A stretch of DNA of 64,000 bases, taken from Nitrospirota bacterium. GTDB taxonomy: Bacteria; Nitrospirota; Thermodesulfovibrionia; UBA6902. How positions within the stretch are numbered: position 1 is the first letter of the stretch; each line of letters opens with the position of its first letter. Shown piece by piece: positions 5,316-33,330 of the stretch. The DNA lies in assembly GCA_016207885.1 (NCBI GenBank), contig JACQZE010000027.1, forward strand, positions 11,944-75,943. The letters are read 5' to 3'. The translations under genes were made by a program, and so were the position numbers. Below the pieces are notes generated by a model. The model searched no databases and was not told the DNA's origin. It saw only the letters and a program-made list of their open reading frames with translations.

Positions 5316-5408
5316 GTTGTAATTATTTTTATTATTATAACTTATTGTAATCTAAGGGAAAAGTGTATAAAAACACTCTTGAGTTTTGCAAATATGATGT
5401 ATACATTT

Positions 5409-5424: not shown

Positions 5425-5438
5425 TGTAACATTATAAT

Positions 5439-10724: not shown

Positions 10725-10792
10725 TGAAAACAGGGGTTGGTGAAATGAAAAAAATCAGAGAAGAAGTGAAGAAGACATGGAGTGAGGGAGTG

Positions 10793-13700: not shown

Positions 13701-16700
13701 ACAACATGGGTGAACCCTTCATCGGTGGATATACGACAAATGCAGGCGGCAATGCAGATTATATAGTATTAAAAGTGACAGGCTATCAGCTGCAGCCGCC
13801 TGTGCCGCTTAACGCCGTGCCTTCATATACGACAGTTGACATCACATGGACTGACAACTCGCTTATTGAAGACGGCTATTATCTTGAGAGAAAGGTCGGG
13901 GGATGTGATTCAGAGAACCCGTGGGCGCTGATATATACTGCAGCCGCAAACGCCGTTTCATATTCCGATACGCTACTGAACACAGGCAGCCAGTACTGTT
14001 ACAGGGTGCAGGCGTACAGGAACAACGGGGAGTCATCAGTGTGGACAGAGAAGGCCACGACCACACTGACCCCTTCAGCGCCGGGCGGGCTTTCCGCAAC
14101 AGCGGTAAACTCCACGCAGATTGATCTTGCATGGACCGATAACACCAATGCAGAGGACGGTTTCAGGATAGAGAGGTGCAGCGGAGCAGGGTGCAGCAAT
14201 TTCATAGAACTGACTACGGTATCGGCAAACACCATAACATATCAGGACATTTCGGTATGCAAGGCAACTGCATACAGTTACCGGGTAGTTGCATACAAGA
14301 CAGGAGAGTGGGAAAGCGTATACAGCGGTACAGCATCAGCAACAACGGCAAATCCGTCAGCGCCCGGAAGCTTTGCGGCAATGAGGAATTCAGAGGTGCA
14401 GATCAACCTCTCATGGACTGACACAACATCCGATGAGACGGGCTTCAAAATAGACAGATGCACAGGGGCGGGATGTTCAGATTTTGCAGAGCTGACTTCT
14501 GTCGCAGCTGGCACGACGACCTATAACAACGCAGGACTTGATTATGGGACAACGTATACATACAGAGTCAGGGCATATAAGACAGCGGCATGCACATGGG
14601 AGACTACGAGCGGGACGGCTGCGGCAACGACAAGCATTTCAGCGCCGTCAGGCCTGACATCAAGCTCTCCAAACTCAACACAGATCAATCTGAACTGGAC
14701 GGACAACACTGCAAGCGAGACTGGTTTTAAGATCGAAAGATGTTCGGGAGCCGGATGCAGTGACTTTGTGGAGATAACAACTGTAGCAGCAGACACAGTT
14801 GCCTACCTGGACACAACAGTATGTGATTCGACGAGCTATAGTTACAGAGTGAGGGCGTACAAGACGAGTGAATGGGATTCAGGCTACAGCGGCACAATAT
14901 CAAGAGCAACCGGGACGCCTTCGGCTCCTGGCGGCCTTGGAACCTCCAGCGCGACAGAGGTAAAGCTGACTCTTGGATGGACAGATAACACTTCAGATGA
15001 GACCGGCTTCAGGATAGAACGTTGCACAGGGGCCGGATGCAGCGACTTTGCAGAGATTACCTCTGTTGCGGCAAACACTACAACATATAACAATACCGGA
15101 CTTGCTCCGTCAACGACATATAGTTACCGTATTAGAGCTTACAAAGACGCAACATGCAATGGCGGCTGGAATACGGCTTACAGCAGCACTGCCACGGGGA
15201 TCACAACAACTGTTCCGCCTCCAAGCGGATTGACTGCAACCGCAGCCAACACAACACAGGTGAATCTTGCATGGACTGACAACACAGGTTCAGAGACAGG
15301 ATTCAAGGTGGAAAAATGCACAGGCGCGGGATGCAGTGATTTTGCAGAGCTGGCAAAAACAGCCCAGAACACAGCCGCGTACTCTGACACATCTGCCTGC
15401 TCCGAAACTTCATACAGGTACAGAGTGAGGGCGATTAAAGAGCTGTTCACCAGTCCTGGCGGCAGTTGCTGGAGCAAGCGCGCCCCTATGACAATTACAA
15501 ACTTTCAGGCCGATTATCAGATACCAATCACAGTGACATATGACGCTGATATGCAGCCTGATTTTGACGACATACGCTTCTACGACGCGACTTCCTTTAC
15601 GGAGCTTCCTTACTGGATAGAAAGTAAGACAGACAGCGTGAACGCTACTGCCTGGATAAAGACCGGGGCCAATAACAACATCTATATGTACTACGGCAAT
15701 CCTAACGCTGCAAGCTCAAGCAACGGAAGCAATGTCTTTGAGTTCTTTGATAATTTTACAGGCTCGGTAATTGACACAAACAAGTGGGCCGAGATTGACC
15801 CGAACAATTCTATCTCACAGAACAACGACCTCATACTTAACGACGTGAGCGATGCATGGGACAAGGCGCTTATATCGAAACAGACCTTTGCCAGGGCTGC
15901 AACCAAAAAGATTTACGCAAAGCTTTATATACCGGTTGACACAGCGGGCAATAACCATTTCATGGTGGGATGGGAGTTGAATCAGACCTCTAACGCGAGC
16001 TACAACCAATTAGTGCATGGATTTTACTGGAATAATTATATGTTGAATACTTATGAGAAAGGCGGTCAAACCGGGCCGAATACACAGGCATATACGGCGA
16101 GTACGGAATATGAGATGAAAGTTGAACTCAAGGCAACCGGCGCCAAGTATTATATCAAAGGCGGGGCCTACGGCAGTTGGACGCTGGTGAAAGATACCTC
16201 GGCGTATTCGGATGCAACGCTGAGGATTGCCTTTACACAATATTCGCATCAGGCAAATATTCATTTCATCACAGTGCAGAAATATGCGGCGACTGATCCT
16301 TCATTATCCTTTGGCGCAGAGGAAGGCTCCGGCTGTTATGTGTTTGACAATACATGGGAGACTTTGCCGAGCAATGAAGCTGCGGTATCCACAGCCTCTG
16401 TCTCTGCCCCGGTGCTCTCAACAACAAGCGTGGGAGATGTATTTGTAAATCTCTCATGGACGGACACGACAACTGACGAGACAGGCTTTGTGCTTGAAAG
16501 ATGCGCCGGAGCAGGGTGCAGCGACTTTGCGCAGATTGCCGTGCCAGGCGCTGATGTAACTGTTTACAGCGATACTGGGCGGACTCTTGGCGAAACTTAC
16601 AGCTACCGCATTAAAGCATACAAGACGGCAACATGCGGCTGGGACACGGCATACAGCAACGTCAGAACAGAGACGACGATTGTTGTGCCTCCCTCAGGGC

Positions 16701-18118
16701 TGACGGCAACAACGGCAAGTACAACACAGTTAAACCTTGAATGGTCTGACAATACCGGCTCTGAGACAGGTTTTAAGGTGGAAAGATGCAGCGGCACGGG
16801 ATGCAGCGATTTTGCAGAGATAGCTTCTGTTGCGGCAAATACAGTTACATATCAGGACACCTCGGTGTGCAATACAACAAGCTACAGCTATAGGGTGAAG
16901 GCGTACAAGGCAGCCGCATGGGATTCAGGCTACAGCAGCACAGCGTCAGCCTCAACTTCTGTTCCCGGGGCTCCTGTGCTTTCAGCGGCACGGATATCCG
17001 AGACACAGATAAACCTTTCATGGACGGACAATACAGCCGATGAGACCGGCTTCAAGGTCGAAAAATGCGCAGGCTCAGGCTGCACTGACTTTGTGGAAAT
17101 AGCGTCTCTTGCCGCAAATGCAGTCACATATAACAACACAGGAATTAACCCTGCTACAACATATGTTTATCGTGTGAGTGCCTACAAGACAGCAGCGTGT
17201 TCATGGTCGGCTGCAAGCAATACGCCTTCTGCGACAACGAGTATCTCTGCGCCTTCAGGCCTGACAGCTTCTGCAGTAAATTCAACACAGGCAAATCTCG
17301 GGTGGACTGACAATACGGCAAGCGAAACAGGATTTAAAATAGAAAGATGCAGCGGCGCAGGCTGCTCTGACTTTACAGAGATAGCATCAGTTGCGGCAAA
17401 CGCAGTTGCATATCAGGACACATCCGTATGCAATTCAACGAACTACAGCTACAGGGTGAAGGCCTACAAGACAGGATTATGGGATTCGAGCTACAGCAGT
17501 TCCTCATCTGCGGCAACAGCAGCTATTGCCGCGCCGGGCAGCTTTGAGGCTGTAGCAGCCACTGATACAAGCGCAGGCCTGACGTGGGCTGATAACACAA
17601 CTGACGAGACAGGTTTCAGAATCGAAAGGTGCGAGGGCGCCGGGTGTGGCAGCTTTACTGAGATAACCACCGTAACCGTTAACACGACCTCCTACAGCGA
17701 TACAGGCCTGACGCCGTCAATGAACTATTGCTACCGTGTAAGCGCGTATAAGGCGGCAACATGCAGCTGGAATACGGCATACAGCAGTGAATCATGCGAT
17801 CTGACCTTCTCGGCAAAACCGACAAGCCTGACTGCGACAGCCCTTAATTCCATGAAGGTGAAATTGGACTGGGTTGACAACTCAGATGATGAAGACGGCT
17901 TTGAAGTGGAAGTAAAGATATGGAACGGCGTATTTGTAAATATCGCAATGCTTGCTCCCAATGTAATCACCTATACGGATAACAGGAGCATAGAACCCGA
18001 TAAATCATATACATTCAGGATAAGGGCCTACAGGGGCGAGGACAAGTCGTCTTACAGCAATGAGGCATCAGCAATAACCCCTGCATATCAGCAGGGAGAT
18101 GAGACGTGCAATGAATAA
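10793..18118 (+). CDS. Giant secreted multidomain surface protein: N-terminal SBBP beta-propeller repeats, about 13 FN3 domains, and a central DUF2341 plus LamG (concanavalin-A-like) module
   Basis: The ORF is open from 10700, with in-frame ATGs at 10724 (overlapping the cytochrome stop as TGATG), 10745 and 10793. The 10793 ATG (MKYRHS…YLFTLIVFVIISTLVLPYYAHA, signal-peptide-like) has a GGGAG Shine-Dalgarno. About 1000 aa of DxxGNxYVTGYxxxxxxxDYxTIKYxxxGxxxW repeats are typical of the SBBP beta-propeller repeat. FN3-like units of about 95 aa repeat (LxWTDNxxxExGFxIERCxGAGCSDFxEI…YxYRVxAYK). A central segment (…ADYQIPITVTYDADMQPDFDDIRFYD…ELPYWIE…ATAWIKTGANNNIYMYYGN) matches DUF2341 and is followed by a LamG-like region. 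The FN3 units are highly similar at the DNA level. Confidence 0.85.
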   Translation: MKYRHSCSLLSGNPVASYLFTLIVFVIISTLVLPYYAHAAGGDVIWQYGDTPQAGKQEAGAMIVDSAGNTIITGASNQSGNDDYYTVMIKADGTGVLWSKVYDKASGDDHATAITVDSDSNVIVTGYVWNGSNYDYHTIKYKGSDGTVLWQHTFNAAVNGNDYATSVTVDSLNNVYVGGNSQGSNGADNCMIVKYGSGGPNPDSTPIWQKSYNGAANGHDRISSIVAGTNGIAVTGTSQNSTLDFDILTVKYGFDSTLTWEKRKSVSGDDRGVSVSMDSLGNVIMTGYVYNGANKDIYTAKYNSSNGNILWETTYSGGYDEEPEDLWVDSSGNAYVAGNTFTIGGTNDIYTAGYASGDGTQLWDEIFNSDNSNSDKAVCISGDNAGSIFVTGDTYNEVSANYDYQTLKYTAGGGTLLWQKSFNGTADKSDRVAGVGLTAAGASIVGGWTDKWTSGATDYDYYAIKYAPGLINPPTEMAVTTVSNSEIALAWTDNSSNEDGFKIERKIGELGTYSQIATVGASVTTYNNTALTADTKYYYRVKAYNAANGDSQYSNEDYAVTTVYSYTYPVWSYIYNGADNGDDFINATAAGSDNHPAVTGYSYSTAGQFDYYTVKLNRQDNSLIWDVRYDSDQNDLDVAKTIAVDNNNNVIVSGYSYLYSAQSGENTNDIYTIKYPSTGSPEDWADQYNGPAGDDDRSSVVDVSTDGNNNYAVVGYGKNASSNDDIYVIKYLNNGTRAWAAAPYDGGGNDYPSAVSFDSAGNIFMTGYRFNGANYDYFAAKYNGSTGTIIWSDIYNGAGNGNDFTRSLAVDSSGNFYVTGIAVTGSGNEDFVTIKYNGATGEQMWVRTMNGPANGVDEAISVKVDPVNGQAAVAGTVLTATGNNDFHIIRYDADGNVFWERTVDRPASDDFVTAAAMDRSGNLHVTGYSNNGANTDILSVWYNTEGAFNGGTTYNGASNGNDEASSIAVNNMGEPFIGGYTTNAGGNADYIVLKVTGYQLQPPVPLNAVPSYTTVDITWTDNSLIEDGYYLERKVGGCDSENPWALIYTAAANAVSYSDTLLNTGSQYCYRVQAYRNNGESSVWTEKATTTLTPSAPGGLSATAVNSTQIDLAWTDNTNAEDGFRIERCSGAGCSNFIELTTVSANTITYQDISVCKATAYSYRVVAYKTGEWESVYSGTASATTANPSAPGSFAAMRNSEVQINLSWTDTTSDETGFKIDRCTGAGCSDFAELTSVAAGTTTYNNAGLDYGTTYTYRVRAYKTAACTWETTSGTAAATTSISAPSGLTSSSPNSTQINLNWTDNTASETGFKIERCSGAGCSDFVEITTVAADTVAYLDTTVCDSTSYSYRVRAYKTSEWDSGYSGTISRATGTPSAPGGLGTSSATEVKLTLGWTDNTSDETGFRIERCTGAGCSDFAEITSVAANTTTYNNTGLAPSTTYSYRIRAYKDATCNGGWNTAYSSTATGITTTVPPPSGLTATAANTTQVNLAWTDNTGSETGFKVEKCTGAGCSDFAELAKTAQNTAAYSDTSACSETSYRYRVRAIKELFTSPGGSCWSKRAPMTITNFQADYQIPITVTYDADMQPDFDDIRFYDATSFTELPYWIESKTDSVNATAWIKTGANNNIYMYYGNPNAASSSNGSNVFEFFDNFTGSVIDTNKWAEIDPNNSISQNNDLILNDVSDAWDKALISKQTFARAATKKIYAKLYIPVDTAGNNHFMVGWELNQTSNASYNQLVHGFYWNNYMLNTYEKGGQTGPNTQAYTASTEYEMKVELKATGAKYYIKGGAYGSWTLVKDTSAYSDATLRIAFTQYSHQANIHFITVQKYAATDPSLSFGAEEGSGCYVFDNTWETLPSNEAAVSTASVSAPVLSTTSVGDVFVNLSWTDTTTDETGFVLERCAGAGCSDFAQIAVPGADVTVYSDTGRTLGETYSYRIKAYKTATCGWDTAYSNVRTETTIVVPPSGLTATTASTTQLNLEWSDNTGSETGFKVERCSGTGCSDFAEIASVAANTVTYQDTSVCNTTSYSYRVKAYKAAAWDSGYSSTASASTSVPGAPVLSAARISETQINLSWTDNTADETGFKVEKCAGSGCTDFVEIASLAANAVTYNNTGINPATTYVYRVSAYKTAACSWSAASNTPSATTSISAPSGLTASAVNSTQANLGWTDNTASETGFKIERCSGAGCSDFTEIASVAANAVAYQDTSVCNSTNYSYRVKAYKTGLWDSSYSSSSSAATAAIAAPGSFEAVAATDTSAGLTWADNTTDETGFRIERCEGAGCGSFTEITTVTVNTTSYSDTGLTPSMNYCYRVSAYKAATCSWNTAYSSESCDLTFSAKPTSLTATALNSMKVKLDWVDNSDDEDGFEVEVKIWNGVFVNIAMLAPNVITYTDNRSIEPDKSYTFRIRAYRGEDKSSYSNEASAITPAYQQGDETCNE

Positions 18119-18164
18119 ATCTGGAATTTCTGATAATTCTTGATCAAATAAAAGGAGGTGTGAA

Positions 18165-18227
18165 ATGAAAAAAATAAAATATATCGCGCCGAAGATTGTC
18201 GGCAGTGCGGTTGTTCATCCCTGCTAA
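18165..18227 (+). CDS. Conserved 20-aa small ORF (peptide A: MKKIKYIAPKIVGSAVVHPC); novel small peptide or leader peptide
   Basis: A strong Shine-Dalgarno (aAAGGAGGtgtgaa) lies 6 nt before the ATG at 18165, and the ORF ends with TAA at 18225-18227. A paralogous copy at 21257 differs mostly at synonymous codon positions. A hairpin plus T-run follows at 18249-18289. Confidence 0.55.
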   Translation: MKKIKYIAPKIVGSAVVHPC

Positions 18228-18248
18228 AGGTGAAGCTGGGTATTGAGA

Positions 18249-18289
18249 CAGGATATCTTCAGCTCTTCATGGAGATATCCTGATTTTTT
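18249..18289 (+). terminator. Rho-independent terminator or attenuator hairpin immediately downstream of sORF A
   Basis: CAGGATATCTtc(agctcttcat)ggAGATATCCTG forms a stem of about 10-12 bp and is followed by ATTTTTT at 18283-18289. It ends only 8 nt before the ATG of the downstream gene at 18298 and abuts that gene's AGGA ribosome-binding site. Confidence 0.5.
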
Positions 18290-18297
18290 CAGGATAC

Positions 18298-20340
18298 ATG
18301 GTAAAATCTTTTGTGTTTATGAAACGTTTAATCCTATTAAACGCCTTTTTGATTCTAATTCTGGCGCCTCTGAAATCTTTCTCTGCTGTTATTGAAGGAG
18401 TTGTGCTTTTCGAAAACGGCCCTGTTGAAGACTCATGCGTATCTGCATACAGCAGCTTCAGGGATATTGAAAAGGGGACCCCGTCATTCGTCTCCGCTAC
18501 AGGAGAGAAAAAAGGATTCTACAAACTTGACCTGCCTCCGGGAACTTATTTCCTGATCGCATCCGGACAGTCTTATGGTAAAAAATATTTCTCCTATCAC
18601 GGCGCAAACCCGATCAAGATAGAGTACAAAAACCTGTGGATACCTTTTATGGCTGTTTCTGAAACAGCAGTGAGTTTGAAAGAATCATCTTCCACGAAGC
18701 TTTCAGGCAAAGTCCTCTTTAAAAACAACCCTGTCAAAAACGCACATGTGTCGATATATCCTCTGGCAGCGGGAAGTTTCAGGGGCATGGGCTTTCTTAC
18801 AAGCACAACTGATGACAACGGGATTTTCAGCATGGGCATTGAGCCCGGGGAATATGTTGTTATAGCGCGAAAGAGGACCGGCAACAGCGGTATGACGCCT
18901 CTCGAAAAAGGCGACCTCTTCTGCTATCCAGCAGCCAATCCAGTGAATATCGCGGAGTTGAAAGAAATACAGGTGGAGATCCCATGTTATCCTAAAGACG
19001 ACCTCAAGGCCTTTCTAAATGAGGATGCTTATCCGGCGCTTCTGGTAAAAAAATCTGACGTGAACAGTATGAGATTCAGAGAGAATACAATTAATGAGGC
19101 GCGGGATCTATTCAGGATAAAAGGAAGAGCAACTGACTTAATGGGTAATCCGGTGAAAGACCTCTACGTTATGGCTTACAAGGGAAAGCCTTCGGATATG
19201 TTTCAGATGCATTATGTCAGGACCATGCCGGATTATATGGTCAGGGCCGATGAGAAAGGGAATTACTCGATCGACGCGGCAGCAGGCGCATATTACCTTG
19301 TTGCCCGGCAGCTTGTCGGAGAGGCTCCGGTCAAAGGCGAGTACTATGGGCTTTATGAAGCTAACGCAAACCACCTGTTTATAATTAATGACAAATCGCA
19401 TGATGCTGTAAATATTTTTGTAAACAGGGTGATGGCGGAAGAACAGCAGAGGGATAAAAGCATAGATCCTGAATCCGTAATCCGCAATTATGAATACAAA
19501 GGGGATATTGTTATTGATAAAAATACGGAATGGAGTGGAAAGATAACAATCAATGGGATCATTCATGTAGCCCGCGGTGCCATACTGACCATTGATCCGG
19601 GAACGACTGTCAGATTTAAGAAAGTTGACCGGACAAGGGACGGAGTTGGAGACGCAATGATAAAAGTAAGCGGCAGGCTTGAGGCGCTGGGCTCTGCGAT
19701 AAGACCCATCAGATTTACTTCCGCTGAGACAACGCCGGATAAGGCAGACTGGTCTTACCTCCTGTTTTTTGTGTCAGGAGATGAGAGCATTATAAGCCAC
19801 TGTATATTTGAATATGCTTTTTCCGGTGTTCAGGCGCATTTCTCGAAAGTGGTAATTAAAGACTCAGTCTTCAGGGATAATTATGAAGGCATAAGGTTCG
19901 GCAGGGCTGATCTTCGCATTGACCATAATGACATTTTTGATAATACTTACGGCGTCAGGCATACAAGGGTTGAAGAGCCTGTCGAAATCACACACAACAA
20001 CATCAGAAATAACGGGGTCGGCATTTTCCTTGTGCCGTCGAATCAGAATATAGTGGATTTTTCAGACACATTCGACAAAAAGGACGCCATTGCACGCAAA
20101 CAGTTTATTGTCACTTACAATAATATTGCTTATAATACGGAATATAATTACAGAATGGGTGAAAGGCAGGGATATGATATTATGATTAAAGAAAATTGGT
20201 GGGGCATGGAGCAGGAAAAGCAGATAATTGATACCATATTTGATGAGAATGAGGACAGCTCTTTGGGAAGTGTAATTTATAAACCATATCTTGTTTCTCC
20301 TGCAAAAGACGCAGGCGCGATAAGGGGGGGAGTATTATGA
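18298..20340 (+). CDS. Secreted protein with three N-terminal carboxypeptidase-regulatory-like (CarbopepD_reg) domains fused to a C-terminal right-handed parallel beta-helix (NosD/CASH-like) domain
   Basis: Signal peptide (MKRLILLNAFLILILAPLKSFSA). There are three GxVxxxxxPVxxAxV…DxxGxYxxxxxxGxYxxxA units (…FYKLDLPPGTYFLIASG; …IFSMGIEPGEYVVIARK; …NYSIDAAAGAYYLVARQ). The C-terminal beta-helix repeats include FRDNYEGIRF, DNTYGVRH, IRNNGVGIFL, and the protein has a terminal NWWG motif (KENWWGMEQEK). Confidence 0.8.
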   Translation: MVKSFVFMKRLILLNAFLILILAPLKSFSAVIEGVVLFENGPVEDSCVSAYSSFRDIEKGTPSFVSATGEKKGFYKLDLPPGTYFLIASGQSYGKKYFSYHGANPIKIEYKNLWIPFMAVSETAVSLKESSSTKLSGKVLFKNNPVKNAHVSIYPLAAGSFRGMGFLTSTTDDNGIFSMGIEPGEYVVIARKRTGNSGMTPLEKGDLFCYPAANPVNIAELKEIQVEIPCYPKDDLKAFLNEDAYPALLVKKSDVNSMRFRENTINEARDLFRIKGRATDLMGNPVKDLYVMAYKGKPSDMFQMHYVRTMPDYMVRADEKGNYSIDAAAGAYYLVARQLVGEAPVKGEYYGLYEANANHLFIINDKSHDAVNIFVNRVMAEEQQRDKSIDPESVIRNYEYKGDIVIDKNTEWSGKITINGIIHVARGAILTIDPGTTVRFKKVDRTRDGVGDAMIKVSGRLEALGSAIRPIRFTSAETTPDKADWSYLLFFVSGDESIISHCIFEYAFSGVQAHFSKVVIKDSVFRDNYEGIRFGRADLRIDHNDIFDNTYGVRHTRVEEPVEITHNNIRNNGVGIFLVPSNQNIVDFSDTFDKKDAIARKQFIVTYNNIAYNTEYNYRMGERQGYDIMIKENWWGMEQEKQIIDTIFDENEDSSLGSVIYKPYLVSPAKDAGAIRGGVL

Positions 20341-21203
20341 TTAAAAAAGCCGCGTTACTTTTTGTTCTGATTCTAATGTTATCAGTAACTGTAATCCATG
20401 CGGAAATTGAGACAGGCTGGATATCGGGCCGGATAATGATCAAGGACAACGGGCCATTAGCTGATGCCATGATAGTTTTCTTTGATACTCAATCAGGGCC
20501 TCCTCCATCTATCGATAAATACTTCAGGGTTCCGGACGGAATTGACGAAGTTGATGCTGAAGGCGGGTTTCGCGTATCGCTTCCTGTCGGCAAGTATTAC
20601 ATCGGAGCGATTAAAAGGGTATCTGCCGAAAAAGCCGGTCCGCCCCTGGATGGTGATTATTTCTTTATCAGTGAAGATAAAGATGGCAAACCTATACAGC
20701 ACATTATTGAGAACGGTAAGGAAGTGAAGCTTGGCACTCTCACAGATGCTGTCCCTTTTAAACGTTCGCTCCCTGAAGGAGTCACAGGGATATCAGGCAC
20801 TATCCTCGATATGGCAGATATCCCTGTTGAAGGGGCAATATTATTTGCATACTATACTGAGACACTAACTGGGATTCCGACCTTTACTTCCTATAAAACC
20901 GGAAAGGATGGCAAATATATTATCACAGTAGACACTGGAGGAGTTTATTACTTAAGGGTAAGAGACGTGTACGGAGGCGGTCCGCCTGTCCCAGGGGCTA
21001 TCATGGGAGGTTACGGGGAAGAAAAGCCTACAGCGATAGTCGCTAAAACAGGCGAGATATCTGGCGGCGTAGATATAAAAGTGATAAGGCATCTTGAAAT
21101 GGGGCCCAAACATCAGCCGGATGCAACGAACGAGAATTTCATGGAAGAGCAAATGAGAAAAATTAAACAGGAAATGGAGAATACGATTGAAAAGAAGCAA
21201 TAG
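20337..21203 (+). CDS. Secreted protein with two carboxypeptidase-regulatory-like domains (paralog of the N-terminus of the 18298 gene)
   Basis: The start overlaps the upstream stop as ATGA. Signal peptide (MIKKAALLFVLILMLSVTVIHA). CarbopepD_reg-type units are present (GRIMIKDNGPLADAMIVFF…GFRVSLPVGKYYIGA; ISGTILDMADIPVEGAILFAYY…TGKDGKYIITVDTGGVYYLRV). Confidence 0.75.
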   Translation: MIKKAALLFVLILMLSVTVIHAEIETGWISGRIMIKDNGPLADAMIVFFDTQSGPPPSIDKYFRVPDGIDEVDAEGGFRVSLPVGKYYIGAIKRVSAEKAGPPLDGDYFFISEDKDGKPIQHIIENGKEVKLGTLTDAVPFKRSLPEGVTGISGTILDMADIPVEGAILFAYYTETLTGIPTFTSYKTGKDGKYIITVDTGGVYYLRVRDVYGGGPPVPGAIMGGYGEEKPTAIVAKTGEISGGVDIKVIRHLEMGPKHQPDATNENFMEEQMRKIKQEMENTIEKKQ

Positions 21204-21256
21204 CAGATCATCAAGCCTGCTATTATACTGCGTCACGGCGTGGAAGGAGGTATAGC

Positions 21257-21319
21257 GTGAAAAAGATCAAATATGTTCCGCCCGGAATAGTCGGGAGCGC
21301 AGCTGTTCACCCTTGCTGA
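21257..21319 (+). CDS. Conserved 20-aa small ORF (peptide B: (M/V)KKIKYVPPGIVGSAAVHPC), paralog of sORF A
   Basis: A GGAGG Shine-Dalgarno (tggAAGGAGGtatagc) lies 6 nt before the GTG at 21257, and the stop is TGA at 21317-21319. Of 20 codons, 16 encode the same amino acid as sORF A; there are 9 synonymous codon changes and 4 amino-acid replacements (I>V, A>P, K>G, V>A). The sORF sits in the same position, upstream of a beta-helix gene, as sORF A. Confidence 0.5.
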   Translation: MKKIKYVPPGIVGSAAVHPC

Positions 21320-21366
21320 AATGAATGAGATATGAATGACCGGGATTTGTTGTCTTAAAATAACTT

Positions 21367-23874
21367 ATGAAATTTCTTGAAACGACATTCCTGCTTCTCA
21401 TCATTTTTATTTTATTTCCTTTTTCAGCCTCCGGAATAACCATCACAAGAGATACCGTGTGGAAAGGCGAAATAACTCTTTCAGAAGATATTGTCGTACC
21501 TGAAGGCGTTACGCTCACTATTCTATCCGGCACAGTGGTAAACATCATTCCTTCCGACAGGACAAAGAGTGAAGCCGAATATCTTTTATTCATGACCGAG
21601 ATGACAATCCGGGGCAGGCTGGAGGTTGAGGGAACCGGGGAAGCGCCAGTTGTATTCCAGGTAAAAGAGGATAAGCCTTACAGATGGGCAGGAATAATTA
21701 TTGACGGGGGGGAGGCAAATATAAAAGCGTGCAGGATTTATGATGCTGAAACAGGCCTTCTTGTAATGAACGGTTCACTTGGATTAACAGACTCGGTCCT
21801 TGAGGATAACCGGTACGGCATTGTTGCGCAGGGCGCGCAGACTTTTGTGAATATGAAAAACACGTATGTCCAAAAAAATGATCACGGCGTTTTTTCATTT
21901 GCCGGCGCAAATGTTGATTTCAGGGACAGCGTTATTGAGCATAACATGAAAAATGATCTCTACATGCCTAAGCCCGATAGTGAGAGTTTGACTGTAAAAC
22001 GCCCGGTCTTGTGTAACAGGAATAGTTATGATTTTGCGAAGGAGTTTGAAGTTCATGGTAAAGAAACAAGCAGAGAATACGGCGATGAAGTTTTGCCTGG
22101 AGATACGGTCTGGCGGGGAAGGATAGCGATTAACGGGCTGCTTAGAGTTCCTGTGAATTTCAGATTGATAATTGCTCCCGGCACGGTTGTTGAATTTAAA
22201 AAGAAGGATACAAACGGTGACGGTATCGGAGAGAACGGAATCCTGATGCAGGGAGTTCTGATTGCGAAAGGCACAAAAGATGAGCCGATCATCTTCAGGT
22301 CTGCGGAGAAACAAAAAAGACCCGGAGACTGGGATGCGATCAACATTATGAACAGTGACGGAGCACAGAATCTTGTGGAGTTCTGTCAGATAGAAAATGC
22401 ATACAGAGGGCTGCATTTCCACTTCTCAAACGTTATGGTGAGTGAATCAATTCTGAGAAATAATTATATAGGCATACAGTTTCAGGAATCAGCAGCGGAA
22501 ATAAGAGGGAGCCACATATACGGCAATAAAAACGGGATCAAAGGCAGGGATTCAGACATGAACTTTACCGGCAATTATGTCTTTGATAACATTAACGGAG
22601 TGAATCTTTTTCGTGTGAGCATGAACGCAAATGATAATACTGTGTTATACAACATGAATGACGGATTTAAGATCAGGGAAGGCATAACCGCGTTAGAGAG
22701 GAATTTTGTCGGCTGCAATAGATCCGGGCTCATGGTGAATGATGCGTTTCATGGCAGGCTCAGCAATAATGCCATTGTGAACAACTATGAGTCAGGTATG
22801 TCGTTAAAGGGTGTTGATAATCTGGATATCAGCGGTAATTTCATCCAGGGCAATGGAGTTAACGGCATCAATCTGCAAAATGCAGGAGCCGTGATCAAGG
22901 GTAATTATATTTCTGAAAACGGCGAAAGAGGCATCGGCATTCAATCGTTTACAGGAACGATAACGGAAAACAACATTGCCGGGAACGGCCTTTATGCCGT
23001 TGAGAACGAAAGCGGCAGCGATATTTCCGCTCCATCGAACTGGTGGGGAAATAAAGATGCGGCCTCAGTAATTTACGATAATAAGGATAGACATGAAAGA
23101 GGGGAGGTCTTATATTCACCTGAAATAGAAACGCCTTTAGTATTTTCATGGCCGTTAAAAAGTATTTATGCGGATGTTACATGGCCCTCGGGTATTTATT
23201 TAAATGAGCCTGTAACTGTTTATGGTTCAACCCTTGAAATCGCTCCCGGTGCGAATATTATATTTTCAAAAGGCGCGGGTTTGAAGGTTTCAGGCGGAAA
23301 GATGCTTGCACCTGGAACAAGTGATAAAAGGATAGTATTTACTTCCTCTGATAAAAATGAAGCCAGCCTGTGGGATGAAATACTTTTTGAACATGCTGAT
23401 GGGAGCGAATTCTCTTTCTGTGATTTTGAATATGCAACATGGGCTATTCACAGCCATTTTACCAGTCTGAAAATCTCAAACAGCCGATTTTTACATAATG
23501 AGGGGGGCATAAGATTCAGGAGCGGGCCAGTTGAAATCAACCGTTCGTTATTTCGGGAGAATAAGGTCGGGATAAGGTCATACTTTGGGAATGCATTGAT
23601 AGAGGAAAATGTTATATTAAATAACGATGTTGGTATATTTGTGAGAGAAAAAGGGAGTGGCCTAACCATAAAGAGTAACAATATTTATTCAAACAAGGCT
23701 TACAATGTCAGGGTTGGGGATTTTAATACTGAAGACATTGACGCGCGGAAAAACTGGTGGGGAGTCGATGACCCCGCCGTGACGATCTTTGATGCAAGAT
23801 GTGAGCCAGGTATCGGGGAAGTCATTTATGAACCGTATTTGACAGAGCCGGTGAAGCTGAATGGCGTAAATTAA
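21367..23874 (+). CDS. Secreted right-handed parallel beta-helix repeat protein (NosD/CASH-like) with NWWG motifs
   Basis: 835 aa with signal peptide MKFLETTFLLLIIFILFPFSASG. It has many beta-helix repeats (NRYGIVA, NYIGIQF, NKNGIKG, NINGVNL, NRSGLMV, NESGMSL, NGVNGINL, GERGIGI…). The motifs SNWWGNKD and KNWWGVDD resemble the KENWWG of the 18298 gene, of whose C-terminal half this protein is a paralog. Confidence 0.8.
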   Translation: MKFLETTFLLLIIFILFPFSASGITITRDTVWKGEITLSEDIVVPEGVTLTILSGTVVNIIPSDRTKSEAEYLLFMTEMTIRGRLEVEGTGEAPVVFQVKEDKPYRWAGIIIDGGEANIKACRIYDAETGLLVMNGSLGLTDSVLEDNRYGIVAQGAQTFVNMKNTYVQKNDHGVFSFAGANVDFRDSVIEHNMKNDLYMPKPDSESLTVKRPVLCNRNSYDFAKEFEVHGKETSREYGDEVLPGDTVWRGRIAINGLLRVPVNFRLIIAPGTVVEFKKKDTNGDGIGENGILMQGVLIAKGTKDEPIIFRSAEKQKRPGDWDAINIMNSDGAQNLVEFCQIENAYRGLHFHFSNVMVSESILRNNYIGIQFQESAAEIRGSHIYGNKNGIKGRDSDMNFTGNYVFDNINGVNLFRVSMNANDNTVLYNMNDGFKIREGITALERNFVGCNRSGLMVNDAFHGRLSNNAIVNNYESGMSLKGVDNLDISGNFIQGNGVNGINLQNAGAVIKGNYISENGERGIGIQSFTGTITENNIAGNGLYAVENESGSDISAPSNWWGNKDAASVIYDNKDRHERGEVLYSPEIETPLVFSWPLKSIYADVTWPSGIYLNEPVTVYGSTLEIAPGANIIFSKGAGLKVSGGKMLAPGTSDKRIVFTSSDKNEASLWDEILFEHADGSEFSFCDFEYATWAIHSHFTSLKISNSRFLHNEGGIRFRSGPVEINRSLFRENKVGIRSYFGNALIEENVILNNDVGIFVREKGSGLTIKSNNIYSNKAYNVRVGDFNTEDIDARKNWWGVDDPAVTIFDARCEPGIGEVIYEPYLTEPVKLNGVN

Positions 23875-23919
23875 CTATGACAGTTTGACATCCAGAAGCA
23901 GCTGAATTTATACAGCATT

Positions 23920-24615
23920 ATGCTTGAAAATATATTTAAAATTGTCGCTATTCTAATTGTAATATCCCTGTTTTTTGGGATTGGTAAAGCCACTGCCGTT
24001 GAGACAACTATCTTCAAAGGACACGTTTTTGACGTGGAAGGCGACGTCGTTAAAGGGACGGAGATATTTATTTACAATTCTCCAGATACCAGGAGGCCTG
24101 CTGATTTCATATCAGGTCGCACGGAAGAGGATGGATATTTTAGTATTACGCTGCCGTTCGGGAAGTATTGGGCTGTGGCGAGATTGAGGAAAGACGACAA
24201 ATATGGCCCGCTTTTGATTGGAGATAAGCATTCAGGAGAACCTGTTGAGATAGAGGTTGAAGCCGGTAAAGAACTTGTTATGAATTTTACAGTAGTGGAT
24301 ATCAGGGACGCCGGGCGTCTATCAAAAAAGACGGGAGAAGATTATTTAAGGATTAGCGGGCGTATTATTGCTGCGGACGGAAAACCGGTCAAACAGGTTT
24401 ATGCTGTGGCAAACAGGACTAATCCGGCTCCTGATATACCCGACTTCTTGTCTGCATGGACGGATATGTATGGGCGATATACCCTTTATTTACCAAAAGG
24501 CAAATATTACATTGGATATGATGATGAATTCCCAATGCATAGTTATAGAGTTTACAAGGAATTGATTATGGAATCGGACAAGGATAATTTTGATATTGTA
24601 GTTGAAAGCAAGTGA
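23920..24615 (+). CDS. Secreted protein with two carboxypeptidase-regulatory-like domains (paralog of the 20337 gene)
   Basis: Signal/anchor MLENIFKIVAILIVISLFFGIGKATA. Units FKGHVFDVEGDVVKGTEIFIY…GYFSITLPFGKYWAVARL and ISGRIIAADGKPVKQVYAVANRT…GRYTLYLPKGKYYIGYD. Confidence 0.75.
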   Translation: MLENIFKIVAILIVISLFFGIGKATAVETTIFKGHVFDVEGDVVKGTEIFIYNSPDTRRPADFISGRTEEDGYFSITLPFGKYWAVARLRKDDKYGPLLIGDKHSGEPVEIEVEAGKELVMNFTVVDIRDAGRLSKKTGEDYLRISGRIIAADGKPVKQVYAVANRTNPAPDIPDFLSAWTDMYGRYTLYLPKGKYYIGYDDEFPMHSYRVYKELIMESDKDNFDIVVESK

Positions 24616-25202
24616 CGCACATGAAGAAAATATTATCTGGTCTTCTAGTAACAGTTTTGCTTTTCACCTCCGCCGCGGAAGCCTGTGTAGGCAAGATACT
24701 CAATATAGGCATCTTGAATTCGGTTGAAGAAAATCTTCTTGCCGAATTGATCTCGGTGATGGTAAATGAGAGAACAGGCACGACTGTTAATATCAAGGTT
24801 TACAAAGATTCAAAAGAGATTTACAACGCAGTGAAGAACGAGGAAATAAGTATAGTAATTGAAAACACTGAACGCGCATTAAAGATACTGGGTCTCTCTG
24901 GAAATGAGAGTGATGCAAAGGCATATGATGTTTCCAGGGATGAGTTCAGGAGCAGATTGAACCTCATATGGCTGAAACCATTTGGAATTGTGAACATGGA
25001 AGATGACGGAGGACAATATTATTATGCTCCTGTGATCACCGAAGATGTGCTGATCAATTTCCCGGCGCTTCCGAGGCTCATAAACAAGCTTTCGGATATT
25101 ACATTGGATAAGAATTATAGAGGTATGATTATCTCTATCAAGCGCGGAGAAAAAGCCAGGAAAGCGGCAAAAGAATTTTTGAAGAAAAAGAAACTGGTAT
25201 AA
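24612..25202 (+). CDS. Hypothetical secreted/periplasmic protein
   Basis: 196-aa ORF; the ATG at 24621 gives MKKILSGLLVTVLLFTSAAEAC, a signal peptide. There are no recognisable catalytic motifs. A lysine-rich C-terminus overlaps the downstream gene start. Confidence 0.5.
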   Translation: MTHMKKILSGLLVTVLLFTSAAEACVGKILNIGILNSVEENLLAELISVMVNERTGTTVNIKVYKDSKEIYNAVKNEEISIVIENTERALKILGLSGNESDAKAYDVSRDEFRSRLNLIWLKPFGIVNMEDDGGQYYYAPVITEDVLINFPALPRLINKLSDITLDKNYRGMIISIKRGEKARKAAKEFLKKKKLV

Positions 25203-25203
25203 C

Positions 25204-26121
25204 GTGCTGCGATTGCCGAAGAATAGAAATGGAAGGATTTACGGCTACCTTTCATCGAAAGAATTAACAATAATACTTTTTACGGTCATCTGTCCTATAT
25301 TGGCAGTTGCATCTTTTTCTGAATCAATATTTCCTTTTGTTTGGTATATGATCAAGGCGCTGCTTGCACTGATAATTCTAAACCTTTTTTTTTGCACGCT
25401 TCAAAGGATAAAAACACTTTCAAGACCTGTTCTGATCATTCACCTTGGTGTGATCATTGTTTTTATTGGAGGAGGGATCAGTTCTTTCGGTTATGTCGCT
25501 ACAGTCAATATATACGAAGGAAGCACCGTTGATAAGGTCTACAGGTGGGATGTGAAACAGGACGTTTCTCCGGGAATAGAAATTACCGTAACTAAGCTGC
25601 ACGAAGAATATTATCCGGCGCCTTTAAAAGTCGGAGTACTCAGAGGCGGCGATAAGTTCGGGCTTTTTACACTGACAATCGGCGAGAGCTTTAGAGCCGG
25701 GAATTACAGGATACAGGCAGACACCCTTGATGTAACATCGCAAAAACTGAGACTAAGCGTTTTTAACGCAGACAGCTACATTGGATATGCCGATACAACA
25801 GGTGTTATGGAATTGCCTGCCGATTTTCCTTTTGATTTTAAGCTCGTGGCATACATGAATCCTGTCATTAAAAAGACATGGGTGGACCTGGTTCTTTCAA
25901 GAAATGGTGAAGTAGTCGCTGAAGGCAGTACAGGAGTGAACAGTCCTTTTACATGGCAGGGGCTGAAATTCTTTCATACCGCGACAAATAGGGATCCGGA
26001 CAGAAATCCTTTTGTAGGCATTCAAATTACAAGAGATCCCGGGATCCCGATTGTTTATGCAGGATTCTGTATTGTATTTATCGGCGGGACAGCATATTTA
26101 TTAAGAAGGATATTTTTATGA
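25204..26121 (+). CDS. Short ResB/CcsB-like membrane protein (putative cytochrome c biogenesis accessory)
   Basis: GTG start. N-terminal TM helices include an in-membrane His (LIIHLGVIIVFIGGGISSFG), a roughly 200-aa soluble loop follows, and a C-terminal TM (IPIVYAGFCIVFIGGTAYLL) closes the protein. This topology resembles the short ResB-like proteins that accompany multiheme cytochromes in Desulfobacterota. Confidence 0.4.
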   Translation: MLRLPKNRNGRIYGYLSSKELTIILFTVICPILAVASFSESIFPFVWYMIKALLALIILNLFFCTLQRIKTLSRPVLIIHLGVIIVFIGGGISSFGYVATVNIYEGSTVDKVYRWDVKQDVSPGIEITVTKLHEEYYPAPLKVGVLRGGDKFGLFTLTIGESFRAGNYRIQADTLDVTSQKLRLSVFNADSYIGYADTTGVMELPADFPFDFKLVAYMNPVIKKTWVDLVLSRNGEVVAEGSTGVNSPFTWQGLKFFHTATNRDPDRNPFVGIQITRDPGIPIVYAGFCIVFIGGTAYLLRRIFL

Positions 26122-26139
26122 CAGAAAAGGGGAAAATAG

Positions 26140-27039
26140 ATGAGATTTATTAAACTGTTGCTCTTTATTAATCTGATTATTATTTTTGCCTCATGCAGGC
26201 AGTCACCTTCCGTTAAAAATGAAAAGGCCTACAGGATAGGCTACATGATCTGCAACAGTGAAGAAGAAACGCTTTACAGATTCAGGCCGCTGACAGCTTA
26301 TTTAGGTAAAAAACTCGGCGTAAAAACAGAGGCTGTGGCGATTGATACAACCAACTTTACAAAAGAGGTTGACAGCCTGGATTTTACTCATACGAATTCG
26401 CTTCTCTACATAATATTAAACCGCTATCACGGCGTCAGGGCATTGACAGCGGACAAACAGGGAGCGCTCGGATTTAGATCGAACGGGGCGATCGTCACAA
26501 GAAAGGACAGCGGGATAAATACGATAAAAGATTTGAAAGGGAAGAGCATGGCCTTCGGCCCCATGCTCGCGCCGACCGGATACTTACAGCAATACGACCT
26601 GATGATCCAAAGCGGTATAGATCCTGAAGATGACCTGTCGTTTTACACGATACCGGCAGGCACGTATAAACATGAAAAGGTGATCTACGGAGTTCTGTAC
26701 GGCATGTATGACGCCGGCGCGTTTCAGATGCTCGATTTTGAACGGATGGTTGAAGAGGGAAAGATCGACCGTGGTGATTTCAGGATAATCGCTGAGGGCG
26801 GATCGATCCCGTACTGCACCTTCGGCTCTGCGCAAAAGATCGACGAACCGCTCGCAAATGCCTTAAAGAAGGCATTGCTCGAATTAAAAAAGGAAGACAC
26901 GGTGGAAATAGACGGAGAGACTGTGAAGGTGCTTGCAAGGGCAAGGCTTGACGGTTTTCAGGATGTAAAAGATGAGGATTACGATGTTGTGAGAGACATC
27001 GCAAAGCGCACCAATATGCCGCCGTATCAAAAATATTAA
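26140..27039 (+). CDS. PhnD/SsuA-like periplasmic substrate-binding protein (phosphonate-binding family)
   Basis: Lipoprotein-like signal (…IIIFASC). The pattern YRIGYMI…ETLYRFRPLTAYLGKKLGVKTEAVAIDTTNFTKEVDSLDF…GAIVTRKDSGINTIKDLKGKSMAFGPMLAPTGYL…DAGAF is typical of the Phosphonate-bd (PhnD-like) fold. Confidence 0.65.
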   Translation: MRFIKLLLFINLIIIFASCRQSPSVKNEKAYRIGYMICNSEEETLYRFRPLTAYLGKKLGVKTEAVAIDTTNFTKEVDSLDFTHTNSLLYIILNRYHGVRALTADKQGALGFRSNGAIVTRKDSGINTIKDLKGKSMAFGPMLAPTGYLQQYDLMIQSGIDPEDDLSFYTIPAGTYKHEKVIYGVLYGMYDAGAFQMLDFERMVEEGKIDRGDFRIIAEGGSIPYCTFGSAQKIDEPLANALKKALLELKKEDTVEIDGETVKVLARARLDGFQDVKDEDYDVVRDIAKRTNMPPYQKY

Positions 27040-27109
27040 AATAGAAGCATGAGATCGTGACCTGTGTATGCCGTTTTTTACTATCGGCAATCGCAGGTGA
27101 AAAGACGAA

Positions 27110-27634
27110 ATGGATAAACTGGATAAAATCTCCATACTTTTTGCCCTTATATTTATCGCAGCTATTGCGGTTGTCAGCGCTGAATACCGCAGTGAATCAG
27201 GATTCCATATCAATCGTTCAGTTACTTACGCAGACAATACGGCGATCGCTGGCGGGATGGCCGCCGATCAGATCAAAACGATCAATAACCTGTTGGAGAG
27301 CGATAATTTTCTTAAGGCGGAAATGCTGCTTAATGAATTAATCAACAGGTATCCGTATGAAGGAGAGCTTCATATGCTGATGGGCGATATGATGATGAGG
27401 AAGCAGGATGCTGTCGGAGCGATCTTTAAGTACAGGGAAGCGGTTGACCTGAATCCCGATTATCTGGATAAGAAAGCGCCTCTCTTTCAGGGATATAAAA
27501 TTAAGGTTGCCGTTGAGGAGGCAAAGGTCAGGATTAATGAAACGCTCTCAAAACGGCATGATGATCAGGATGTGAAGGCGGCAAAAAAAAACATGTATTA
27601 TCTTTTAAAAAAACTGGCAGGATCCTGTGGGTAA
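27110..27634 (+). CDS. TPR-like repeat protein, secreted/anchored
   Basis: N-terminal hydrophobic segment (ISILFALIFIAAIAVVSA) followed by helical TPR-like repeats (FLKAEMLLNELINRYPYEGELHMLMGDMMMRKQDAVGAIFKYREAVDLNPDY). Confidence 0.55.
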   Translation: MDKLDKISILFALIFIAAIAVVSAEYRSESGFHINRSVTYADNTAIAGGMAADQIKTINNLLESDNFLKAEMLLNELINRYPYEGELHMLMGDMMMRKQDAVGAIFKYREAVDLNPDYLDKKAPLFQGYKIKVAVEEAKVRINETLSKRHDDQDVKAAKKNMYYLLKKLAGSCG

Positions 27635-30664: not shown

Positions 30665-30734
30665 TTCAGGTGTAGCTTTTGCAGAGAGGGCTTATATTTT
30701 TGAATTGCTGTAAATAACATTTCCGGAGGGAATT

Positions 30735-33239: not shown

Positions 33240-33330
33240 TGGTTTTGCATTCTGTTAAGGCTGCGGCTTTTGCAAAATACCATTTTCTGTTAGCCAAATT
33301 CATCATAAATATGTACAATAATGTACTATT

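Follow-up and report, generated by a model that had tools for sequence, protein, structure and literature searches.

What is the function of a peptide of twenty residues whose gene stands, twice, in front of genes for large secreted proteins? This question is raised by a 64,000-nt stretch of DNA from a Nitrospirota bacterium (contig JACQZE010000027.1, + strand), hereafter referred to as the window; coordinates are those of the window unless another locus is named. Two short open reading frames (sORFs), sORF A and sORF B, each precede a gene for a right-handed beta-helix protein (helixA and helixB) and a gene for a protein with CarboxypepD_reg-like domains (carbA and carbB). A preliminary description considered these six genes as a duplicated three-gene module, in which the peptide and the secreted proteins would act together. 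Here, we compared the sORFs and their surroundings with those of other genomes and of metagenomes. The sORFs are almost certainly real, conserved genes. Very probably, their module is the 5' portion of a conserved gene cluster that spans about 16 kb (window 18.1-33.9 kb) and ends in a GeoRSP cassette. GeoRSP is a curated, uncharacterised radical SAM/PqqD system, and the models that we consulted name no substrate for it. We lean towards the view that the sORF peptides are its substrates or precursors, by analogy with PqqA and MftA, the precursors of pyrroloquinoline quinone (PQQ) and of mycofactocin. What is new is an unannotated family of precursor-like peptides that is tied to an orphan maturase, in a cluster rich in secreted proteins.

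A family of very short peptide genes

The two sORFs and their expression signals are arranged as follows.

18152-18159, + strand: Shine-Dalgarno site of sORF A, AAGGAGGT, read from the sequence
18165-18227, + strand: sORF A, 20 codons, MKKIKYIAPKIVGSAVVHPC, stop TAA; candidate GeoRSP precursor peptide
18249-18289, + strand: intrinsic-terminator-like hairpin between sORF A and helixA (hairpin 18249-18282), with a 13-bp stem and an 8-nt loop, then ATTTTTT
21244-21251, + strand: Shine-Dalgarno site of sORF B, AAGGAGGT, read from the sequence
21257-21319, + strand: sORF B, 20 codons, GTG start, MKKIKYVPPGIVGSAAVHPC, stop TGA

The peptides of sORF A and sORF B are identical at 16 of their 20 residues, and their codons differ by nine synonymous and four non-synonymous changes. 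In both, 5-6 nt separate AAGGAGGT from the start codon. Apart from this ribosome-binding site, the flanks of the two sORFs do not align with each other. Chance would hardly ever give such a pair. A signal sequence is absent from the peptide. A search of NCBIfam and Pfam with both window peptides, at E up to 0.01, gave zero family matches, and ten representative peptides of the family described below, the two of the window included, had no exact match among 15 billion proteins.

A family profile was built from 22 peptides and was searched against all stop-to-stop open reading frames (ORFs) of 86 loci. The outcome was bimodal, true matches scoring 38-55 bits and everything else below 9 bits; sORF A scored 50.3 bits and sORF B 43.0 bits. 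We also scanned the JGI metagenomes with a degenerate DNA pattern that fixed residues 6-20 only, which gave at least 120 matches. Upstream of the Tyr, the unconstrained residues read M-K-K-like in all 120 metagenome matches listed, which the pattern did not demand. The same pattern had zero matches in 2.9 million viral contigs. The family comprises 141 unique instances and 119 distinct peptides, with up to three copies on one contig (locus L107; here and below, L-numbers are labels of the compared loci). Its consensus, of 19-20 residues, is M-K-K-x-K-Y-V-x-P-[KR]-[IV]-V-G-S-A-x-V-H-P-C-stop. Some members are 19-mers, and rare members end in YPC or QPC. Examples from the gaps before helixB in Geobacter and Nitrospirae loci are MKRCKYVRPRVVGNAVVHPC, MKKQAYVKPRIVGSADVHPC and MKKIKYVPPKIVGRAAVHPC. 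A 20-codon family with more than 140 unique instances can, evidently, slip past all gene callers.

In 23 sequences that were found without the DNA pattern, the entropy at codon positions 1, 2 and 3 is 0.52, 0.59 and 1.51, respectively, and the 30 nt after the stop codon are unconserved (entropy 1.82). This third-position variation, followed by unconserved DNA, points to a translated gene under purifying selection. A Shine-Dalgarno site of the type GGAAAGGAGGTG lies about 8-19 nt before the start codon in most of the 130 members with enough upstream sequence. The 80 nt after the stop codon are structured, with a mean z of -3.4 and z < -2 in 100 of 136 copies. A strict stem followed by a T-run, beginning about 10-30 nt after the stop, is present in 74 of the 136. 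In the window, the fold of these 80 nt has z = -4.1 for sORF A and z = -0.19 for sORF B, and by this measure no strong terminator was found between sORF B and helixB. In at least seven loci (L094, L173, L188, L200, L202, L125 and L060) the sORF is the last gene of its unit and is followed by the hairpin and then by a convergent gene, which marks the sORF as an autonomous mini-gene with its own terminator. Such an arrangement is typical of precursor-peptide genes. By their predicted signals, the sORFs are strongly translated, autonomous mini-genes of an unannotated family of 19-20-residue peptides.

Other identities of the sORFs were considered and rejected. Selenocysteine read-through was raised by the TGA of sORF B together with the YedE-family gene of the cluster. 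The stop codons of the 141 copies are TGA in 87, TAA in 46 and TAG in 8, so that 54 of 141 end in TAA or TAG; furthermore, no conserved extension follows the TGA, the in-frame run after it varying from 0 to more than 20 codons. An origin of the sORF and its hairpin as a repeat or mobile element conflicts with the three-periodic variation and with hairpin sequences that differ between copies, as well as with the unaligned flanks of the window pair (the Shine-Dalgarno site excepted) and the unconserved 30 nt after the stop. Only 1 of 130 members has a sigma-54 promoter in front of the sORF. A scan of the window and of four loci for riboswitches or other known RNA elements, near the sORFs or 5' of helixB, gave no match at the Rfam gathering score.

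Two features of the flanking hairpins can be described. The terminator stems after many sORFs (for example L003 8729-8757, L154, L118 and L198) reuse similar arms, GGTGAGGCC / GGCCTCACC or GAGGCAC / GTGCCTC, which resemble Shine-Dalgarno and anti-Shine-Dalgarno strings; in principle, the 5' arm could pair with the His-Pro codons (TCACC). In the subfamily MKKRTYIKPRVVGSA[ND]VHPC, a hairpin GCACG...CGTGC is located directly 5' of the ribosome-binding site (…GTGCGGAAAGGAG…), for example in L060 at about 18700-18730 (- strand), L181, L130, L199 and L100. It may be a stabiliser of the 5' end or a processing site.

The GeoRSP cluster and its conservation

The genes from 18165 to 33885 are all on the + strand, and their junctions are short or overlapping. 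Besides the sORFs, the cluster consists of the following genes.

18298-20340, + strand: helixA, 680 aa, secreted as judged by eye; three CarboxypepD_reg-like domains plus a single beta-helix unit of the NosD/CASH type, which ends in NWWG
20337-21203, + strand: carbA, 288 aa, secreted as judged by eye; two CarboxypepD_reg-like domains; the first 4 nt of the gene overlap the end of helixA
21367-23874, + strand: helixB, 835 aa, secreted as judged by eye; three right-handed beta-helix units, two NWWG caps, conserved DWD and HxHF[ST] motifs
23920-24615, + strand: carbB, 231 aa, secreted as judged by eye; two CarboxypepD_reg-like domains
24612-26121, + strand: OpuAC-like 196-aa protein and ResB-like 305-aa membrane protein (Pfam), in the same order in most of the 80 loci compared below
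26140-28733, + strand: PhnD-like binding protein, 174-aa TPR protein and YedE-family transporter, a conserved trio (Pfam, NCBIfam)
28730-31061, + strand: ArsP_1-family permease (644 aa) and 108-aa cupin (Pfam, NCBIfam)
31054-31386, + strand: GeoRSP PqqD-family peptide chaperone (TIGR04302, 139.7 bits, cut-off 100; Pfam PqqD, 63 bits)
31379-32383, + strand: GeoRSP radical SAM/SPASM enzyme (TIGR04303, 568.9 bits, cut-off 400)
32373-33239, + strand: SPASM-only paralog (best match TIGR04304, 211.3 bits, below the cut-off of 300)
33331-33885, + strand: ResA/TlpA-like thiol-disulfide oxidoreductase, with which the cluster probably ends in this genome

The complete GeoRSP cassette (31054-33239), which the preliminary description did not include, is located 10-13 kb downstream of the sORFs, on the same strand. 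Inspection of the translation showed that the N-terminus of the SPASM-only protein does not contain the CxxxCxxC radical SAM motif. The ResA/TlpA-like gene is followed by the housekeeping genes for GcvH, Lpd and DAHP synthase. A literature search on GeoRSP, on TIGR04302-4 and on radical SAM/PqqD in Geobacter returned nothing relevant, nor did one on pqqA transcripts.

An alignment of the radical SAM enzyme was scanned against one genome per species, which yielded 80 loci, hereafter the enzyme-centred loci. Nearly all are from Nitrospirota/Thermodesulfovibrionia or from Geobacterales/Desulfuromonadales, and a few are unclassified. A tblastn map of these loci gave the order helixB-carbB-OpuAC-ResB-(PhnD-TPR-YedE)-ArsP-cupin-PqqD-radical SAM-SPASM almost everywhere, and carbB comes after helixB in almost all mapped loci. 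Of the 61 loci that extend 9.5 kb or more upstream of the radical SAM gene, 56 have helixB in that flank. Matching clusters, including the PqqD, radical SAM and SPASM genes, are found in Geobacter sp. AOG1, in a metagenome-assembled genome (MAG) of an uncultured Geobacteraceae and in another Nitrospirae MAG. By the frequency of helixB and the recurring order, the beta-helix and CarboxypepD_reg genes belong to the core of the GeoRSP neighbourhood and do not form an independent module, and their products are co-inherited partners of the GeoRSP system. Homologs of helixB numbered 672 among 8000 candidates scored; the 120 listed have 49-85% identity, and their named sources are Nitrospirota, Thermodesulfovibrionales, Geobacter and Desulfuromonadales.

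In Nitrospirota the PhnD-TPR-YedE trio precedes the maturase genes, and in Geobacterales it follows them. The YedE-family protein (27627-28733), a putative selenium transporter (TIGR04112, 388 bits, cut-off 200), always comes together with two partners, a TPR protein (about 175-180 aa) and a PhnD-like binding protein, and the trio moves as a unit. In some Geobacter clusters, the ArsP_1 permease and the cupin are swapped for a NicO/RcnA-like exporter and a small beta-helix protein; in Geobacter sp. AOG1, the exporter (L003 14735-15604) stands in place of the ArsP permease.

The sORFs take part in this conservation to a variable degree. The relatives of the window with 85% and 72% identity in helixB keep sORFs at both positions, while the relative with 61% identity keeps only the second. 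The position of sORF B, before helixB, is kept in L006, L208 and L209 and in Geobacter loci, and orthologs of helixA keep their position in L006, L208, L209, L023, L107 and L153. Overall, an sORF lies within 10 kb of the radical SAM gene in 18 of the 80 enzyme-centred loci. Among the 36 Geobacterales clusters in which the region upstream of helixB is visible, the sORF is directly upstream of helixB in 11 and elsewhere in the locus in 5, and 20 have none. In these 36 clusters, the presence of an sORF goes with that of an upstream carbA (contingency table 11, 4 / 5, 16; Fisher p = 0.006).

The comparison bears on the claims made previously for this DNA. The succession sORF, beta-helix gene, CarboxypepD_reg gene is confirmed for both modules of the window, with sORFs 18165-18227 and 21257-21319 each preceding a helix gene and then a carb gene. 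The gene-neighbourhood check that had been proposed was run, and sORFs recur upstream of homologous helix genes in the 85% and 72% relatives as well as in distant Geobacter. The association of sORF, beta-helix and CarboxypepD_reg genes is evolutionarily real. The described extent of the module, however, stops too early: the module makes up no more than the 5' portion of the roughly 16-kb GeoRSP cluster. Nor does a consistent gene order hold, with the sORF in front of helixB in only 11 of 36 clusters and missing within 10 kb of the radical SAM gene in 20.

The peptides as candidate GeoRSP precursors

The PqqD, radical SAM/SPASM and SPASM-only genes are in the same cluster as the sORFs, which makes their products an obvious candidate maturase for the peptide. 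The closest solved relatives of the GeoRSP enzyme are PqqE (6c8v, E = 6e-20), SkfB (6efn_A) and 5v1q_A, which is named only 'Radical SAM' and which we take to be SuiB. After TIGR04303, its nearest curated families are AhbD, NirJ2 and MftC. The three solved relatives are peptide-modifying SPASM enzymes. A cassette above its curated cut-offs (the SPASM-only paralog excepted), the conservation of the cluster, the sORFs within 10 kb of the radical SAM gene in 18 of the 80 enzyme-centred loci and in the clusters of L116 and L131, and sORFs that are coding, mostly have a Shine-Dalgarno site and a terminator and occur in several copies are likewise in favor of a precursor role. PqqA and MftA resemble the sORF peptides in their small size. 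Both undergo modification at or close to the C-terminal end, with a PqqD-type chaperone presenting them, and the pqqA gene, often in several copies, tends to have a stem-loop after it.

In the mechanism that we propose, the sORFs would encode ribosomal precursor peptides of GeoRSP, standing to it as PqqA does to PqqD/PqqE and MftA to MftB/MftC. The PqqD-like chaperone would bind the basic N-terminal half of the peptide, K-Y-x-x-P-[KR]-[IV]-V-G, and the radical SAM enzyme would modify the near-invariant C-terminal V-H-P-C. Two chemistries are suggested by the solved relatives of the enzyme and by its nearest curated families. One is a thioether or other cross-link from the terminal Cys, and the other an oxidative decarboxylation of the C-terminal residue like that of MftC. 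With the strong ribosome-binding site, the dedicated terminator and the dispersed copies, far more precursor than enzyme would be made. The product may be used, bound or handled by the secreted beta-helix and CarboxypepD_reg proteins, perhaps in a periplasmic or extracellular process that involves metals.

GeoRSP shares several features with known peptide-maturation systems and differs from each. As in PQQ biosynthesis, a very short ribosomal peptide is found together with a stand-alone PqqD-family chaperone and a SPASM radical SAM enzyme whose closest solved relative is PqqE, and the sORF resembles pqqA in its strong ribosome-binding site, its own hairpin and its multiple copies. However, NCBIfam and Pfam hold models of PqqA and MftA, and the sORF peptides match neither (E up to 0.01). 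PqqA carries an E-x3-Y motif and MftA ends in GVY; the sORF peptides have no Glu-x3-Tyr pair and end in VHPC. The GeoRSP cluster has no genes for PqqB, PqqC or PqqF, has a second, SPASM-only protein and is otherwise mainly a set of genes for transporters and for secreted proteins of the beta-helix and CarboxypepD_reg kinds. Mycofactocin biosynthesis is similar in its PqqD-type chaperone and SPASM enzyme and in having the conserved residues of the peptide at the extreme C-terminus. Its model TIGR03962 is among the better secondary matches of the GeoRSP enzyme (156 bits, below the cut-off of 265), although the enzyme scores far higher on its own TIGR04303 (569 bits). No homologs of MftD, MftE or MftF are present in the cluster, and the taxa are Geobacterales and Nitrospirota, not mycobacteria.

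The sactipeptide and ranthipeptide systems (SCIFF, SkfA/SkfB, subtilosin) also combine a short Cys-containing precursor with a radical SAM/SPASM maturase, and SkfB and 5v1q_A are among the solved relatives of the GeoRSP enzyme. The N-terminal motif of the sORF peptide, K-Y-x-x-P-x-[IV]-x-G-like, may resemble ranthipeptide leaders. In contrast to these systems, the sORF peptide has 19-20 residues with a single Cys at the very C-terminus, the cluster is without a peptidase or ABC exporter, and the curated maturase models are matched only far below their cut-offs. By analogy, the GeoRSP set would work like the precursor/chaperone/radical SAM triads of PQQ and mycofactocin; it is a member of neither, given that the precursor models are unmatched, the accessory genes are absent and the enzyme has a family of its own.

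Several observations weigh against a precursor role. The sORF and the cassette share a cluster in the window and in many loci, and in L116 the sORF sits between the radical SAM and SPASM genes of GeoRSP; yet the 20 Geobacterales clusters mentioned above, with the upstream region of helixB fully visible, have no sORF within 10 kb of the radical SAM gene. For one such cluster, L207, the locus was extended by a further 7.5 kb upstream, and no sORF was found in the 10 kb upstream of helixB. Among 120 listed metagenome loci centred on an sORF, most of which are short, a homolog of the radical SAM enzyme is in view in only four, and PqqD is also present in just two of these, L116 and L131; in L131 the sORF is about 8.5 kb upstream of the radical SAM gene, in the same cluster. 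Fifteen sORF loci of at least 8 kb show zero genes of the cluster, and most sORF copies have CarboxypepD_reg and beta-helix genes nearer to them than the maturase genes. In NCBIfam, the radical SAM enzyme comes nearest to AhbD and NirJ2, which are tetrapyrrole enzymes and not peptide maturases. A leader peptidase is not evident in the cluster. In favor of a precursor role, on the other hand, no other small ORF was found that could provide a substrate of the cassette. The sole apparent one, a Cys-rich '...ITPRNCWICQP' ORF located before helixB where Geobacter clusters have no sORF, proved to be the DUF190 gene after crcB, read out of frame.

The explanation closest to the preliminary description is that the peptide, unmodified, is a direct partner of the secreted beta-helix and CarboxypepD_reg proteins (a ligand, a small subunit or an assembly factor) and works independently of the radical SAM cassette. 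We regard this as unlikely, in spite of the evidence from gene neighbourhoods. In the 120 listed sORF-centred loci, the commonest neighbours are carbA (40), helixA (29), helixB (25) and carbB (23). When the first downstream ORFs were clustered, 64 of 134 fell in the beta-helix/CarboxypepD_reg group. The correlation with upstream carbA and the sORF-helix-carb units kept in close relatives are in line with such a partnership. Against it, the proposed partners are exported by Sec, and the peptide is without a signal sequence; a surface complex would need an extra export step. Many helixB/carbB pairs have no sORF nearby, and the PqqD peptide chaperone of the cluster would be left without a peptide. 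Moreover, sORFs flank unrelated gene types: eight of the clustered downstream ORFs are multihaem cytochromes, and others encode secreted ankyrin proteins, PMT_2 glycosyltransferases, PhnD-like proteins, one AhbD-like radical SAM/SPASM protein, one NHL/FG-GAP propeller and one FGE-sulfatase-like protein, and giant adhesins are also among the neighbours. In L094, for example, the sORF directly follows the gene of a 2886-aa adhesin, and the convergent gene has a GtrII match below the cut-off. For a role in S-layer assembly, which had also been suggested, we found no support.

Slightly less probable still is that the sORF encodes a free-standing small protein that is not a substrate of GeoRSP: a His/Cys metal-binding or chaperone peptide, a haem-binding micro-subunit of a cytochrome, or a small regulator. 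The near-invariant C-terminal His-Pro-Cys offers ligands for a metal or for haem. The cluster has a metal flavour in its ArsP permease (related to the SO_0444 Cu/Zn efflux protein) or NicO/RcnA-like permeases and in DUF4198, the cupin and YedE, and NikR with CbiMNQO stands beside it in L060. In L200 and L202 the sORF comes directly after a multihaem cytochrome gene, and in L125 a single gene of 249 aa lies between them. However, one His and one Cys in twenty residues would make a weak metal site, and this explanation does not account for the co-clustered PqqD/radical SAM cassette.

We consider it very improbable that the sORF is a cis-acting leader or arrest peptide, whose translation would control a downstream terminator (attenuation) of the secreted-protein genes: like the trpL, TnaC and SpeFL attenuators it is a tiny ORF followed by a terminator-like hairpin, about 10-30 nt after the stop in most copies, is usually 40-200 nt upstream of a same-strand gene, and has a Pro-Cys-stop end that faintly recalls TnaC-type stalling, but the peptide is conserved over its whole length, N-terminus included, in two phyla, the genes after it vary widely or, in at least seven loci, are convergent, sORF B has no terminator before helixB, and the hairpins probably start too far 3' to be covered by a ribosome at the stop codon.

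If the peptides are precursors of GeoRSP, as we favour, a further step can be proposed, which we advance with considerable doubt. The HPC-terminal peptides might give rise to a novel cofactor or metal-binding molecule of peptide origin. PQQ and mycofactocin would thereby be joined by a third such system, whose precursor would be the shortest known. In metal-respiring Geobacterales and Thermodesulfovibrionia, the secreted beta-helix and CarboxypepD_reg proteins and the multihaem cytochromes would use this molecule or be loaded with it. Such a cofactor, if it exists, would explain why precursor copies are scattered beside genes for secreted proteins and cytochromes; copies of pqqA sit beside quinoprotein genes. 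Geobacter relatives and Nitrospirota, which carry the system, are important in metal cycling and in extracellular electron transfer, and a new cofactor or metallophore in them would, if real, bear on their physiology. An easily synthesised, widely conserved 20-mer as the candidate substrate makes GeoRSP directly testable.

Secreted proteins and other neighbours

The four large proteins of the two modules have N-termini that resemble Sec signal peptides, judged by eye, in agreement with the earlier assignment. An old duplication had also been proposed, and the paralogs are indeed diverged, with 34% identity between helixA and helixB (E = 7e-29) and 30% between carbA and carbB (E = 1e-10). In Pfam, helixA matches CarboxypepD_reg (51.9 bits) and NosD (28.2 bits, gathering score 23.6), as well as Beta_helix and DUF4198, and helixB matches Beta_helix (115 bits) and NosD (84.5 bits). 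carbB reaches 37.1 bits for CarboxypepD_reg (PF13620, gathering threshold 32.3), and carbA, at 31.5 bits, is just under this cut-off. The previously proposed count of three, two and two CarboxypepD_reg domains in helixA, carbA and carbB is weakly supported. When the seven segments were scanned singly, PF13620 was the top match in six, and in the second segment of helixA it was a close second to DUF4198 (26.3 and 26.6 bits); all seven, at 14.9-26.3 bits and E from 1e-5 to 0.035, are under the gathering score. The DUF4198 matches, which we counted among the nickel/cobalt links, fall in CarboxypepD_reg regions.

The NWWG motifs described earlier are present in the sequences, one in helixA and two in helixB. 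In an alignment of 30 homologs of helixB, the N-W of both sites (N558 W559 W560 G561 and N796 W797 W798 G799) is invariant and the W-G is at least 90% conserved. Furthermore, two of the helixB units each have a D-W-D and a motif with paired histidines, E..IE.AYRGLHFHF[ST] or ..EYATW..HSHFT (residues 321-323, 338-354 and 690-699). The D-W-D and paired-His motifs are invariant or at least 90% conserved across the 30 homologs and may form a metal or catalytic site.

The AlphaFold2 (AF2) model of helixB has a pLDDT of 88.7. A Foldseek search with this model retrieved only generic right-handed beta-helix enzymes and tailspikes, with TM up to 0.5, and indicated no specific function. Both helix proteins are similar to NosD in being secreted right-handed beta-helix proteins above the Pfam gathering score of that family. 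Nevertheless, neither matches the NCBIfam NosD model, and NosD is not in the top 50 of the fold matches of helixB, the best of which are alginate lyases/epimerases and phage tailspikes. The helix proteins are multi-unit, with the family-specific NWWG, DWD and HxHF motifs, and their cluster is without genes for NosF, NosY, NosZ or NosL and without an ABC ATPase. By these sequence and gene-content differences, the helix proteins are not NosD orthologs.

The cluster is preceded in the window by genes for further surface proteins.

84-18118, + strand: 1664-aa beta-helix protein, 1761-aa multihaem cytochrome (CxxxxCH motifs, Geobacter-type) and 2472-aa fn3/SBBP/DUF2341 adhesin

The location of the modules after a cytochrome and a giant adhesin is, therefore, as had been described. 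Genes of these surface beta-helix, cytochrome and adhesin kinds also flank sORFs in L094, L200, L202, L125 and L093/L107. In L208 (5977-6714) and L209 (5895-6650), an extra CarboxypepD_reg gene of about 250 aa, which the window does not have, is located between the giant adhesin and sORF A.

Other neighbours vary between loci. In several sORF-less Geobacter clusters (L026, L028, L065, L069 and L207), helixB is preceded by a crcB-DUF190 pair, which is fluoride-related; in L207, crcB is directly before helixB. In Geobacter sp. H7geo, NikR together with the uptake system CbiM/N-CbiQ-CbiO adjoins the cluster (L060 15110-18521), a link to nickel/cobalt like the NicO/RcnA-like exporter of L003. The sORF of this locus comes after a BchE-like radical SAM gene and is convergent with the gene for the CbiO-type ABC ATPase, which was confirmed with Pfam. 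In L118, from about position 1780, the ORF after the sORF has, by eye, a CbiM-like N-terminus, like the CbiM of L060.

Additional radical SAM genes stand beside an sORF or the cluster. L203 (11409-12431) encodes an AhbD-like radical SAM/SPASM protein (452 bits, cut-off 500), and L004 (7478-8599) another SPASM enzyme. The BchE-like protein of L060 (18848-20362, - strand) is a B12-binding radical SAM protein (401 bits, cut-off 481). Together with the ResB-like and ResA-like genes, these extra enzymes hint at a tetrapyrrole or cytochrome connection.

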